64,000 nucleotides of DNA from Candidatus Omnitrophota bacterium (GCA_016867115.1 VGKG01000001.1:29237-93236), one strand, 5' to 3'. Counted from the stretch's first letter, positions 1,354 to 41,162 are shown. A program made the numbers and translations. The notes: generated by a model not told the origin, from the letters alone.

Positions 1354-1439
1354 ATCGCCTCCCTGTAAAAGATATGGTCTGCCCTTCCTTTATGTTACCC
1401 CTTAATATATCACCACTTAGTGAAAAATCAAGACTTTTT

Positions 1440-1652
1440 AATGAGCAGACAACTTATGGAACCGCCTGCCTACGGCAGGCAGAAAGCGAGTGATATAAGT
1501 TGTAGCTGCCTCATTTAATTATACTCAGCGTCTGCAAATTATCCCAAAAGGGATAGCCCTTCCTACACCTATAAGGAAGGGGCTTAATACCGAGCGTGCG
1601 AAGAAGATTTTTAACTAAGAAATATCGGAAATCTTCGAGCGTTTACGCGAGG
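1440..1652. repeat. Copy 1 of a conserved structured intergenic element (candidate ncRNA or cis-RNA family); copy 2 is at 38890..39029.
   Basis: Blocks shared with copy 2: AATGAGCAGACAACTTATGGA, [variable hairpin], ATAAGTTGTAGCTGCCT, TTTAATTA, CAGCGTCTGC, TTCGAGCGTTTA(C/G)GCGAGG. A long inverted repeat CAGACAACTTATGG / ATAAGTTGTAGCTG encloses a variable GC-rich hairpin (CTGCCTACGGCAGGCAG). Confidence 0.6.
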
Positions 1653-35324: not shown

Positions 35325-35349
35325 AAACCGTCTATACCTAGATATCAAG

Positions 35350-35424
35350 TCGGGGCGCACGGACTTGAACCGTGGACCTCAGCGTCCCGAACGCTGCGCT
35401 CTAGCCAAACTGAGCCACGCCCCG
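35350..35424 (-). tRNA. tRNA-Pro (anticodon CGG)
   Basis: Minus strand reads CGGGGCGTGGCTCAGTTTGGCTAGAGCGCAGCGTTCGGGACGCTGAGGTCCACGGTTCAAGTCCGTGCGCCCCGA. It has a 7-bp acceptor stem, D, anticodon (loop TTCGGGA) and T arms (GGTTCAAGTCC). CCA is not encoded. A TTGCCA, 17 nt, TATACT promoter lies at 35474..35446. Confidence 0.85.
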
Positions 35425-38405: not shown

Positions 38406-38873
38406 TTATTTTATCTGGCTCATAAGATTGACCATCTCAATGGCTGAGACTGCCGCATCCCTACCCTTGTTGCCGTCCTTGGTCCCTGCGCGCTCGACCG
38501 CCTGTTCGATGGTGTCGGCAGTGATTACTCCAAAGATCACCGGCTTCGCAGAATCCAGAGACACCTTAGCTACGCCTTTGGCCGCCTCTGAAGCGATAAA
38601 ATCAAAATGCGGGGTGGAACCGCGGATGATCGTCCCGAGGCAGATCACCGCATCGTAATCCTTGGATTTCGCAAGATTCTGCGCCGCAAGCGGCATCTCA
38701 AACGCTCCGGGGACCCAGACTACTGCCTGATCCGTCTCCTGAGCGCCGTGACGTACCAGGGTATCAATGCATCCTGAAACAAGCTCCTTGGTCAGAAAAT
38801 CATTGAAGCGTGACGCTACGATCGCGAATCTCTTTCCCTTCACAATTAATCCCCCTTCAATTGTCTTTACCAT
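38406..38873 (-). CDS. ribH: 6,7-dimethyl-8-ribityllumazine synthase
   Basis: 155 aa with lumazine synthase motifs ([19 protein letters not shown]). Strong RBS GGAGG 7 nt upstream. Confidence 0.9.
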
Positions 38874-38889
38874 CTTCCTACCTCCTTTA

Positions 38890-39029
38890 AATGAGCAGAC
38901 AACTTATGGAGCGCACAAAGTAAGCGGACATAAGTTGTAGCTGCCTAGTTTAATTACTGTCAGCGTCTGCGAATTTACCCCGAGCCTGCGATGAAAATTC
39001 TGCAAGAATTTTCGAGCGTTTAGGCGAGG
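38890..39029. repeat. Copy 2 of the conserved structured intergenic element, located between ribBA and ribH
   Basis: Shares all conserved blocks with copy 1 (1440..1652). The variable internal hairpin is different and shorter. It ends right next to the ribH Shine-Dalgarno sequence. Confidence 0.6.
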
Positions 39030-39047: not shown

Positions 39048-40253
39048 TTATTCAATATTCAACTCGTGCCCCAACTTCTCTTTCTTCGTCTTCAGATACC
39101 TGTAATTCACCGGATTCGGCTCTGATTCAAGCGCCAGGCGCTCCACTACGCGCAGGCCGTAACCCTCGAGTCCGACGATCTTTCTGGGATTATTGGTCAA
39201 GAGCCGGATATTCTTTACCCCTAAATCCACAAGGATCTGCGCACCGATGCCGTAATCGCGCAGGTCCGCTTTATGGCCCAGGGCCTCATTAGCCTGGACC
39301 GTATCCAGGCCTTTATCCTGCAGGGAATAGGCCCGGATCTTCTCCACTAATCCTATGCCGCGGCCCTCCTGGTTCATGTACAGGATCACGCCTTTCTTCT
39401 CGTTGCCGATGATCTGCATCGCCTTCTCAAGCTGCCGGCCGCAGTCGCAGCGCAGCGACCCGAAAACATCTCCGGTAAGGCACTCCGAATGCACGCGCAC
39501 TATCGCGGTCTGATCCCTGAACTCTCCCATGACCAGGGCAGTATGCACTTTATTATCGGTCAGGTCGCGGTAAAGGACCAGCCTGAAATCGCCGTATTCC
39601 GTGGGCAGCGTAGTCTCGGCAGCGCGCTCGATCAATTTTTCCGAGCGGCGGCGGAACTCAATGAGGTCGGCGATAGAACAGATCTTCAGATTGTGTTTAC
39701 GGGAGAATTCCAGTAATTGCGCAAGCCGCGCCATGGAGCCGTCTTCATTCATGATCTCGCAGATCACTCCTGCAGGATAAAGCCCGGCTAAACGCATCAG
39801 GTCTACCGAAGCTTCGGTATGGCCTGCCCTGACCAGGCAACCGCCTTTACGCGCGCGTAAGGGAAAGACATGCCCCGGCCGGATCAGGTCTTCTACGCTA
39901 CTCTGAGGATTTATCAGGACTTCTATCGTGCGGCTGCGGTCATGTGCGGAGATACCGGTGGTTATGCCGCGCGAGGCATCTACCGAGATCATCCAGGCAG
40001 TGGCAAAAGGGTCCTGCTTGGCGTTCGCCTCTTTTAGCATAGGTTCAAGGCCAAGCCGACGCAGCCGCTCTTCTTCCATGGGCACGCAAATGAGCCCGCG
40101 GCCGTATTTGGCCATGAAATTAATACTCTCAGGCCGGGCGAAAGAGGCAGCCATGATCAGATCGCCTTCGTTCTCACGGTCCTCATCATCTACGACCACG
40201 ACCATTTTACCGGTTTTGAGATCTTCTAGAATATCTGGGATGGAATTGAACAT
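39048..40253 (-). CDS. ribBA: Bifunctional 3,4-dihydroxy-2-butanone-4-phosphate synthase / GTP cyclohydrolase II
   Basis: 401 aa with an N-terminal DHBP synthase domain (VVDDEDRENEGDL) and a C-terminal GTP cyclohydrolase II domain with a Cys zinc site. Confidence 0.9.
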   Translation of the reverse strand: MFNSIPDILEDLKTGKMVVVVDDEDRENEGDLIMAASFARPESINFMAKYGRGLICVPMEEERLRRLGLEPMLKEANAKQDPFATAWMISVDASRGITTGISAHDRSRTIEVLINPQSSVEDLIRPGHVFPLRARKGGCLVRAGHTEASVDLMRLAGLYPAGVICEIMNEDGSMARLAQLLEFSRKHNLKICSIADLIEFRRRSEKLIERAAETTLPTEYGDFRLVLYRDLTDNKVHTALVMGEFRDQTAIVRVHSECLTGDVFGSLRCDCGRQLEKAMQIIGNEKKGVILYMNQEGRGIGLVEKIRAYSLQDKGLDTVQANEALGHKADLRDYGIGAQILVDLGVKNIRLLTNNPRKIVGLEGYGLRVVERLALESEPNPVNYRYLKTKKEKLGHELNIE

Positions 40254-40402
40254 GGATTGTTTGTATGCTTAGCTCCTGCTGATTTGCTCGTCAAACACAC
40301 TCGCAAATCAAAACGCAGGAGTTAATTCGCGGGCGCCCTCGTTTCACTCGGGCTACACTTTACGTTCACTCACTTAGTTCGTTCCGTAAAGTGTCCGCTC
40401 AT

Positions 40403-40428
40403 TAAAAAGCCCGAAGATGATCTTCGGG
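40403..40428 (-). terminator. Intrinsic terminator / attenuator hairpin of the FMN riboswitch expression platform
   Basis: Minus strand reads CCCGAAGATCATCTTCGGGC followed by TTTTTAAT, about 15 nt downstream of the aptamer 3' end and upstream of the ribBA start. Confidence 0.7.
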
Positions 40429-40622: not shown

Positions 40623-40691
40623 ACAAAGTTAGTGTAGCATAAAATCTTATCTTGTCAATAGCATAAAATATACCTATAATAAGGTAATCCT

Positions 40692-41162
40692 ATGGAACGT
40701 ATTGTAAATCAGATACATTCGCTCCTGATCAAAAGGCAAAAGAGCGTAGCCGTGGCTGAATCCTGCACCGGCGGCCTCCTCTCCGAGCTCCTCACCGACC
40801 TCTCCGGCAGTTCAGAATACTTCATTCTGGGCATAGTCGCTTATAGCAACGCCGCAAAAATGCGCATCCTAAATGTTTTGCCCAGGTTAATCGCCAAAAA
40901 CGGCGCAGTTTCAGGAGCTGTAGCCAGGAAAATGGCACGATCCGTAAGGTCACTGGCAAAGTCTGACTTTGGTCTCGGCATCACCGGCATTGCCGGCCCT
41001 ACAGGTGGCACTCCCCAGAAACCCATAGGCACTATATTCATCTCTATAGATGGCAAAACCAGGAGTATCTGCAAAAAGTTCTTATTCAAGGGAAACCGCC
41101 AAACTATCCGCAAAAAATCAGCCCTCAAAGCGCTTGAGATGTTAAAGGAACTGATAAAATGA
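40692..41162 (+). CDS. CinA C-terminal domain protein (PncC-like nicotinamide-nucleotide amidohydrolase)
   Basis: 156 aa, CinA C-terminal family (SVAVAESCTGGLL...GLGITGIAGP). A TTGTCA, 17 nt, TATAAT promoter ends 11 nt before the ATG, so the leader is very short. Confidence 0.8.
   Translation: MERIVNQIHSLLIKRQKSVAVAESCTGGLLSELLTDLSGSSEYFILGIVAYSNAAKMRILNVLPRLIAKNGAVSGAVARKMARSVRSLAKSDFGLGITGIAGPTGGTPQKPIGTIFISIDGKTRSICKKFLFKGNRQTIRKKSALKALEMLKELIK

Follow-up and report, generated by a model that had tools for sequence, protein, structure and literature searches.

Near the start of a 64,000-nucleotide (nt) stretch of DNA from a Candidatus Omnitrophota bacterium (GCA_016867115.1 VGKG01000001.1:29237-93236; hereafter ‘the window’, always meaning the whole stretch) lies a structured non-coding element, at positions 1440-1652 on the minus strand, with a second copy at 38890-39029 on the same strand. 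The question raised by this locus is whether the element is a two-copy candidate for a new non-coding or cis-regulatory RNA family, as a preliminary description had proposed, or a member of something larger. Our analysis points to the latter: the element is probably one unit of a phylum-wide, amplifying, interspersed mosaic repeat of Omnitrophota, which resembles the repetitive extragenic palindromes (REPs), bacterial interspersed mosaic elements (BIMEs), ERIC and Correia repeats of other bacteria rather than a gene-specific regulator, and which would act as punctuation within operons.

Pairwise alignment showed that the two copies share long identical blocks. Four conserved blocks each have exactly two matches in the window, and in 100 dinucleotide-preserving shuffles three of them never reached two matches, while the fourth, a 17-mer, did so once. 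Both copies also fold more stably than their shuffled counterparts (z = -4.1 and -5.0). Scanning the window with a covariance model (CM) built from 37 short members of the family, termed R1, revealed a third, diverged copy on the plus strand at 40319-40408, and a second model for the shorter types of the unit described below, R2, found no copies in the window beyond these three. The three units stand among roughly 60 genes, which lie almost entirely on the minus strand.

Read in the RNA sense, that is, on the strand of the downstream gene, the repeated unit consists of a palindromic module, P0, followed by an A unit of 60-130 nt. The A unit is a three-way junction formed by a basal helix (P1), a variable GC hairpin (P2) and a conserved helix (P3), and runs in the order P1a, UC/UC loop, P1b (GCAGAC/GUCUGC), P2, junction CUAC, P3a, UC/UC loop and P3b. 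P1a comprises five mostly A-U pairs, P3a reads ACAACUUAYG/CRUAAGUUGU, P3b is a variable apical hairpin, and P1 and P3 carry one 2x2 UC/UC internal loop apiece; the basal helix reads UAAAU-UC-GCAGAC / GUCUGC-UC-AUUUA. The P0 palindrome varies and belongs to one of a few families that recur, the window type being CCC-UC-GCC...GGC-UC-GGG. Two further types of unit, B and C, have a 1-3-nt bulge instead of P2, and type C ends in UAAGU...ACUUA. Types A, B and C are set apart by compensatory changes, with the UUA/UAA step of P3a and both UC/UC loops invariant in all three.

Covariation supports this fold. In a model-derived alignment of 74 sequences, 96.7% of the cells are paired and 20 of the 25 pairs show changes on both sides, a level of pairing that none of 500 shuffles matched and that fell to 28-43% in slid controls; a MAFFT alignment of 33 type B and C units, not fitted to the structure, gave 95.2% paired and two-sided changes in 17 of 21 pairs, all these sequences being related copies and some of the loci possibly redundant. 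The preliminary description, which had recognised two conserved copies of a structured non-coding element with variable apical inserts, both oriented like the minus-strand genes that flank them, is borne out on each of these points by the alignment, the block counts, the fold scores and the covariation. Its long stem, ACAACTTATGG/ATAAGTTGT, also exists, but is the inner arm P3 rather than the basal helix, and the first two of its sequence blocks are P0.

How far does the family extend? An 18-mer from the 3' block matched 30 loci in a collection of species-representative genomes, about 20 of which contain the whole motif, the remainder being chance matches that have nothing else of it. Loci with the full motif are labelled Candidatus Omnitrophota in 17 cases, ‘Planctomycetales’ in 3 and ‘bacterium’ in 1, and the proteins of the window are deposited as those of Candidatus Omnitrophota metagenome-assembled genomes. 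A gapped pattern recovered at least 119 loci from metagenomes of the Joint Genome Institute (JGI), mostly from freshwater and sediment, and gave 0 matches in a scan of viral contigs. Across about 0.88 Mb of collected genome and metagenome loci, which are 8-kb fragments of many genomes (numbered with an L below), CM R1 produced 209 matches. The further homologues and their compensatory changes support a conserved structured element, and they are far too many for the two-copy regulator first envisaged.

The preliminary description knew of no matching family, and the database searches agree. At the gathering score, Rfam 15 found only an FMN riboswitch and one tRNA in the whole window; at E <= 10 the two copies drew only sub-threshold chance matches of 13-16 bits, with no match to the models of known self-cleaving ribozymes (hammerhead, twister, twister-sister, hairpin, hatchet, pistol and HDV-like). 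ARAGORN reported only tRNA-Pro at 35349-35424 in the window and no tRNA- or tmRNA-like fold at the element. A literature search that included recent Omnitrophota genome surveys returned no description of such a repeat or RNA motif in Omnitrophota. The family is therefore new, in that it is absent from Rfam 15 and the searchable literature, though it is akin to known hairpin repeats.

The position of the units relative to genes is strikingly regular. With a threshold of 50 bits there are 142 type-A units, and for 98 of them an open reading frame (ORF) on the same strand starts within 30 nt of the 3' end. In 37 of those 98 an AUG without a Shine-Dalgarno sequence (SD) lies no more than 4 nt past P1, and an SD-like core follows in 56 copies, at an offset of 0-1 nt in 47 of the 56. 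At co-directional junctions with both neighbours called, A units are sense in 67 cases and antisense in 6; elsewhere, 12 lie in divergent and 6 in convergent regions. Type C has the reverse polarity (9 antisense, 2 sense), with the TAA of the upstream gene inside P1a at a fixed offset.

The genes downstream have little in common. When 96 downstream proteins were compared with NCBIfam, 697 families were matched and none had more than three members; the NCBIfam naming covers only a few of these genes, among them dxr, trpD, aroC and pnp. Read from their N-termini, the downstream genes presumably include dnaK, groES, groEL, tig, pnp, aroC, trpD, metK, nusB, rbfA, ftsA, murD, acpP and ribH, as well as those for ribosomal proteins S3, S8, S16, L6, L18, L19, L20, L21 and L24. 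By the same readings, units precede what we take to be the S3, L24, S8, L18 and L6 genes of the ribosomal cluster and murD and ftsA of the dcw cluster. Units also stand upstream of groES and between groES and groEL; the loci for these clusters are L112 1490-2084, L059, L049, L136, L142, L040 and L043. Since units lie inside core operons, they must be co-transcribed with them, and given the polarity data an RNA function of the transcribed element is plausible.

The same units behave as an amplifying repeat. At a typical junction, the UAA of the upstream gene runs into an inverted type C unit, followed by a P0 palindrome, an A unit and the SD or AUG of the next gene. An inverted B or C partner occurs within 300 nt of 28 of 84 A units (median spacer 51 nt), giving composites with inverted units of ~60 nt at both ends, and for a composite of inverted unit, P0 and A, folding predicts a single long hairpin of REPIN type (z = -7). 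L032 and L062 contain tandem arrays in which the flanks are repeated too. We considered and dropped the idea that the inverted pairs are 5'-untranslated regions of divergent promoters, since the two members of some pairs overlap each other (L084/L116) and the upstream stop codon lies within reach of the inverted partner, which overlaps it.

Comparison of orthologous junctions shows that units are gained and lost. In the ribBA-ribH-nusB-PHP operon of the window, a unit occupies the ribBA/ribH junction and the ribH/nusB spacer is 1 nt; in the same operon of L082, the ribBA/ribH spacer is a plain 28 nt, and P0 and A stand between ribH and nusB. Similarly, DUF503 and rbfA overlap as TAATG in the window's organism, and in L091 the TAA and the AUG are separated by a composite that begins GUGAGG and ends CUCAUUAAAA. 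Units also precede genes that we take, from the downstream N-terminus readings alone, to be pnp (L069), murD (L040) and ftsA (L043); the window's organism has no room for a unit at these places, since the gene before murD or ftsA touches or overlaps it and only ~30 nt separate rpsO from pnp. Moreover, seven pairs of A units that lie beside unrelated genes show 90-95% identity from end to end.

Some insertions carry a duplication of their surroundings. Direct repeats of 20 to 55 nt or more flank P0 + A in 8-9 of 110 copies (summarised as 20-60 nt in ~7% of copies), against a maximum score of 11 in the null. The duplicated segments are the terminal 21 nt of ilvC in two species, with a relic ORF (MPWMKK*) left behind, the terminal 51 nt of another gene, the 3' end of 5S rRNA, and the 5' parts of the genes for tRNA-His, tRNA-Met, tRNA-Glu and tRNA-Gly. 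The direct repeats mark out P0 + A as the inserted unit, exactly the extent boxed in the preliminary description, and they look like target duplications of variable length. L019 and L046 share one insertion with its duplication and have wholly different P0, P2 and P3b, which indicates module turnover or homogenisation.

Taken together, filled and empty junctions, near-identical copies at unrelated genes, mosaic pairs, terminal inverted repeats (TIRs) and flank duplications point to a REP-, BIME- or MITE-like amplifying repeat, the last standing for miniature inverted-repeat transposable element. The preliminary description had ruled out a MITE and stated that there are no TIRs. That statement is wrong: P1 itself is a TIR of the core (arms UAAAUUCGCAGAC / GUCUGCUCAUUUA), and copy 2 has in addition an outer 12-bp inverted repeat (a 13-nt, one-bulge complement at 39047-39035). 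The family behaves like the kind of repeat that was ruled out, with about one third of the A units in inverted mosaic pairs, filled and empty junctions, and 20-60-nt flank duplications in some copies.

In the reading that we favour, the family amplifies within genomes, and compact operons gain and lose its units where a stop and the next start lie very close together; units of types B and C are often found inverted upstream, in REPIN/BIME-like composites. The weak basal helix of a sense A unit, with its A-U pairs and UC/UC loop, ends 0-4 nt before the SD or AUG, and the fixed polarity would be enforced at the RNA level; fixed polarity and tight abutment together suggest such an RNA-level constraint or role. 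Once folded, the unit may act as a generic intercistronic punctuation hairpin. It would shield the preceding message at its 3' end and set or insulate the point at which translation of the next gene begins, and it might also provide a processing site for a double-strand RNase.

Several observations weigh against this reading. A short target duplication of fixed length was not consistently found among the copies searched, and the long, variable duplications fit neither DDE nor HUH transposition. Queries with IS200 TnpA and the E. coli REP-associated tyrosine transposase (RAYT) gave no tblastn hit at E <= 0.5 in 0.95 Mb of fragments, and the annotated parts of the window contain no transposase or reverse transcriptase Pfam domain. 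The metagenome loci may be redundant between samples, and the gene calls are crude, comprising long ORFs only. Within type A stems, G-U and A-C combinations stand at 43:26, a weak sign of selection on RNA over selection on a DNA palindrome. Finally, the phylum-wide conservation of the core, the fixed polarity and the 0-1-nt SD abutment are unusually tight for selfish repeats, and would fit a dedicated host function equally well.

Such a function, which we regard as the strongest competitor though still unlikely, would make the unit a host RNA module: a site at which a phylum-specific factor reads the UCGC/GCUC loop motif and the UUA/UAA step, with an RNA-binding protein, RNase III or a new self-cleaving fold as candidates. 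Selection would keep it locus by locus for processing of operon transcripts or for SD-poor initiation, and spread would be secondary. A module of this kind would account for the strict 67:6 sense polarity, for the SD placed 0-1 nt past P1 in 47 of 56 copies and the flush AUG in the 37 without SD, for the units serving as 5' leaders in the 12 divergent regions, and for UC/UC loops and a UUA/UAA step that do not vary across three types. It would also suit the conservation of orthologous units, which at 72-88% identity goes far beyond that of the saturated third codon positions of the downstream genes (34-70%), and the many units placed before usually highly expressed genes, presumably those for chaperones, ribosomal proteins and acpP from the N-terminus readings. 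However, the unit sits at different junctions of the same operon in different genomes, and most junctions have none; copy 1 is followed by a promoter-like site and copy 3 lies antisense in a leader. Other points against the module are the exchange of variable modules within one orthologous insertion (L019 versus L046), the occurrence of flank duplications and of tandem arrays, a preference for G-U that barely exceeds that for A-C, and the lack of any ribozyme family match at E <= 10.

Less probable again is a mobile ‘operon punctuation’ RNA, a self-contained module with a hairpin near the stop, a palindrome as spacer and a three-way junction near the start, its UC/UC loops being recognised by an Omnitrophota-specific factor or the RNA processing itself. 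It would spread by a non-canonical process that leaves the 20-60-nt target duplications, for example through an RNA/cDNA intermediate, like a short interspersed element (SINE), or in dependence on the replication fork.

Recognition of the DNA itself has been proposed for some BIMEs, and the Omnitrophota unit could by analogy be a single-stranded or cruciform DNA hairpin bound by a nucleoid, gyrase, recombination or replication protein, with transcription irrelevant. Watson-Crick pairs make up 97% of the stems, G-U and A-C counts are close to symmetric, both strands fold well, and the mosaic arrangement is BIME-like (PMC3733652). We nevertheless find this quite improbable: orientation tracks the local gene strand, even where neighbouring units lie on opposite strands (L057, L110, L088 and L059), and unless transcription or translation plays a part, it is difficult to see why the units should be phased so exactly with stop codons, SD and AUG. 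As adjacent opposite-strand units each follow their own gene, replication-strand bias is also unlikely to be the sole cause of the polarity.

Hardly credible at all, and effectively refuted by the diversity of downstream genes and the lack of an expression platform, is a gene-specific riboswitch or attenuator of ribH and the 274-amino-acid gene next to copy 1, the strongest form of the preliminary idea: copy 2 does lie between ribBA and ribH and end at the ribH SD, and the copies are structured (z = -4 to -5), but the 96 genes downstream fall into 697 families and show no relation to one another, an FMN riboswitch complete with terminator is already present in the rib operon, neither copy has a terminator-like site or a predicted SD-sequestering alternative, and the relative L082 has no unit at ribBA/ribH. 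Two other candidates were discarded. UGCUCAUUAA resembles the boxA sequence UGCUCUUUAA of boxA/nut-like antitermination sites, but is the paired, covarying 3' strand of P1. Integron attC sites, judged by inspection, disagree with the element in their R'/R'' cores, and its neighbours are genes of core operons.

The local anatomy of the three window copies is compiled in the table below. Copy 2 lies between ribBA (39048-40253) and ribH (38406-38873), in the order ribBA stop, 13-nt inverted complement of the 3' end, P0, A unit and ribH SD. The 13-nt segment, UAAAUUGAGCAGA, can pair over 12 bp, with one bulge, with UCUGCUCAUUUA at the 3' end of the unit, and may be an outer TIR or a leftover of an inverted unit. 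The ribH SD (AAGGAGG) begins 1 nt past P1a, and minimum free energy (MFE) folding of the junction predicts that both SD and AUG are unpaired. The P0 type-1 module of copy 2 also occurs upstream of A units in L015, L082, L119, L132, L137 and L150.

Copy 1, which shares its P0 and P2 subfamilies with copy 2, lies between a gene for an RluA-family pseudouridine synthase (1615-2571) and the 274-amino-acid gene (529-1353). Its A unit has a long GC hairpin insert in P3b and UU in place of UC on the 5' side of the P1 loop, and the extra hairpins between P0 and the A unit have no counterpart in copy 2. The last 12 codons of the RluA-family gene (SRKRSKISDIS) and its TAG stop (1617-1615, in the P0 loop) fall within copy 1, and the annotated C-terminus of the protein is thus repeat-encoded. 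From the end of the copy to the ATG at 1353 are 87 nt, and the promoter-like site between them makes copy 1 a 3'-side element, not a leader. The preliminary statement that each copy ends immediately upstream of a ribosome-binding site accordingly holds for copy 2, with the ribH SD, and not for copy 1.

Copy 3 differs from the others in its P0 and P2 subfamilies and has compensatory changes in P1b (GCGGGC/GUCCGC) and P3a (ACACUUUACG/CGUAAAGUGU). Within the ribBA leader it occupies the antisense strand, with the terminator of the FMN riboswitch (40428-40410, minus) on one side and the ribBA ATG (40253) on the other. An SD-like GCAGGAG found 19 nt upstream of ribBA is complementary to the P0 5' arm of this copy. 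A single gene-specific regulatory role does not fit the contexts of the three copies.

Table. Positions of the repeat modules and adjoining signals in the window, with the collected loci that carry flank duplications in the last line.
Feature	Position	Strand	Basis or remark
Copy 2 A unit, three-way junction	38888..38977	-	CM R1 67.5 bits, MFE fold, family covariation
Copy 2 P1a	38977-38973 / 38892-38888	-	MFE fold
Copy 2 P1 UC/UC loop	38972-71 / 38894-93	-	MFE fold
Copy 2 P1b, GCAGAC/GUCUGC	38970-65 / 38900-895	-	MFE fold
Copy 2 P2	38964-38940	-	MFE fold
Copy 2 P3a	38936-29 / 38908-01	-	followed by second UC/UC loop and apical hairpin P3b
Copy 2 P0 type-1 hairpin, CCCC-UC-GCC...GGC-UC-GGGG, with its own UC/UC internal loop	38977..39032	-	fold
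UAAAUUGAGCAGA, directly after the ribBA stop codon	39035..39047	-	MFE of 211-nt context pairs it with 38899-38888
ribH SD AAGGAGGU (38887-38880) and ATG (38873-38871)	38871..38887	-	sequence; predicted unpaired
Copy 1 A unit	1438..1542	-	CM R1 58.3 bits, alignment, fold
Copy 1 extra hairpins, AGCCCCUUCC...GGAAGGGCU (1584-1555) and AUCCCUUUUGGGAU (1554-1541)	1541..1584	-	gaps versus copy 2, fold
Copy 1 P0 type-1 module	1590..1652	-	sequence, alignment, fold
Sigma-70-like promoter TTGATT-16-(TG)a-TATATT, between copy 1 and the 274-amino-acid gene	1404..1431	-	consensus match only
Copy 3 A unit	40322..40405	+	CM R1 57.8 bits, 24/25 pairs Watson-Crick
Copy 3 P0 hairpin, CUCCUGC-UGAUUUGC...GCAAAUCA-GCAGGAG	40273..40321	+	read off sequence
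Loci with flank duplications	L019 60-260; L046 3680-3840; L137, L094, L117, L095, L058, L078, L032		

The individual modules show further variation. In the P2 hairpins of copies 1 and 2 (1505-1529 and 38940-38964, minus), the 3' half, AAUUAAACUAGGCAG, resembles the P1 5' strand UAAAUUCGCAGAC; through this mimicry, model R2 can align an alternative two-way fold that bypasses the real P1 5' strand. The P1-like half may be a nested partial duplication or an alternative pairing, and the same P2 subfamily recurs in L051, L100, L135, L142 and L148. The type A P2 is flanked by near-invariant GACG and CUAC (window 38965-38937, minus), which the opposite strand reads as CGTC and GTAG. Both tetranucleotides lie inside the unit and are paired in part, and they are missing from types B and C; type A may have arisen as type B with a hairpin resembling a REP nested in the bulge. 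One subfamily (e.g. L071, L082, L087, L098, L118 and L132) carries in its P3b loop GACGUAAGU, a copy of the P3a 3' strand, which could form a competing 10-bp hairpin with AACUUACGUC. Among the P0 families, the palindrome CTTGACATTT...AAATGTCAAG (L138, L140, L093, L072, L026, L102, L124 and L083) places a TTGACA (-35-like) box on both strands, with weak -10 matches in the loop, and others begin CCCACCACTTTT, CGCCCTTTTGGG or CCACACCCAG.

Elsewhere in the window, divergent promoter-like sites occur at 40631-40694. On the minus strand, TTGACA-16-TACACT would drive the FMN riboswitch and ribBA, and on the plus strand TTGTCA-17-TATAAT ends 12 nt before the ATG of a cinA-like gene at 40692, a distance that suggests a nearly leaderless mRNA. 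A run of small ORFs at ~57.7-59.5 kb (L161 4673-6464), one with a weak Pfam match to GemA of Mu-like phages, could be a prophage remnant amid an otherwise housekeeping window.

Omnitrophota are uncultured, mostly ultra-small bacteria with very compact operons. A structured, co-transcribed insert of 100-250 nt between stop and start codons must there be either tolerated in one polarity only or used by the cell. The family can be searched with CMs R1 and R2 and offers a way into how selfish hairpin repeats turn into operon components. It also points to a route of mobilisation that would give long, variable target duplications with no transposase in sight, and this pattern, at odds with standard transposition chemistry, is the most interesting loose end. 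For annotation the elements are a warning, since ORFs run on into them or end there, and core operons acquire sites that look hypervariable. A 2026 preprint places ribosomal-protein operons within ‘hypervariable’ windows in 150 of 223 Omnitrophota genomes, a signal to which insertion polymorphism of the repeats could contribute. The analysis also removes a false lead, in that the element is not a new riboswitch for riboflavin genes.

How does the family compare with known systems? Early mRNA of phage T7 contains long intercistronic RNase III processing hairpins with internal loops. If such a hairpin is cut on its 3' side, the upstream message would keep a protective 3' hairpin and the downstream one would start with a short leader, which matches a unit that ends 0-4 nt before the SD or AUG; however, T7 sites are not genome-spreading repeats, and cleavage of the Omnitrophota unit is purely hypothetical. 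With riboswitches and other leaders the units share covarying helices, the sense strand and a place upstream of coding regions, but they differ in the incoherent functions of the downstream genes, conserved nucleotides that lie mainly within helices, the lack of an expression platform and variable presence at orthologous junctions.

ERIC and Correia repeats are transcribed, MITE-like repeats that form folds in mRNA and alter its processing or stability via RNase E (ERIC) or RNase III (Correia) (PMC10969869, PMC2229807). Like the Omnitrophota units, ERIC (also IRU) and Correia (NEMIS/CREE) sequences are imperfect palindromes of ~100-200 bp inside transcription units, ERIC being conserved between related genera, and some carry promoter-like boxes, as does one Omnitrophota P0 family that contains CTTGACA. 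Correia repeats, in contrast, have 26-bp TIRs and a TA duplication, whereas the Omnitrophota family has no fixed short duplication; both orientations are common in ERIC and Correia, against 11:1 sense in Omnitrophota, and the host phylum is unrelated.

REPs are high-copy intergenic palindromes with subfamilies related by complementary changes, found as inverted dimers and in clusters reiterated with their flanks, and their termini can supply stop codons (PMC3733652). Compared with these, the Omnitrophota units are larger, being three-way junctions of 60-130 nt with UC/UC loops against 20-40 nt, with only P2 in the REP size range, and their core is conserved across the phylum whereas REPs are species-specific. 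REPs hug the upstream stop with the next gene at variable distance, while A units abut the downstream start, keep a strict polarity with transcription and in some copies have 20-60-nt flank duplications; no RAYT gene was found with the tblastn queries in 0.95 Mb of genome fragments. The tags that define the two REP superfamilies, GTAG and CGTC, stand unpaired at one end of the REP palindrome (PMC3733652); the GTAG and CGTC that flank the Omnitrophota P2 in reverse complement are internal, partly paired and confined to type A. In common with REP, BIME and REPIN systems (PMC3733652, PMC3116915), the family consists of intergenic palindromes in high copy number, whose subfamilies are set apart by compensatory changes in the stems. 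Further shared traits are inverted dimers, spaced 20-100 bp, with the capacity to form larger hairpins, mosaic clusters reiterated with flanking DNA, termini that give flanking ORFs their stop codons, and a location mostly between co-directional genes, where the repeats are presumably transcribed.

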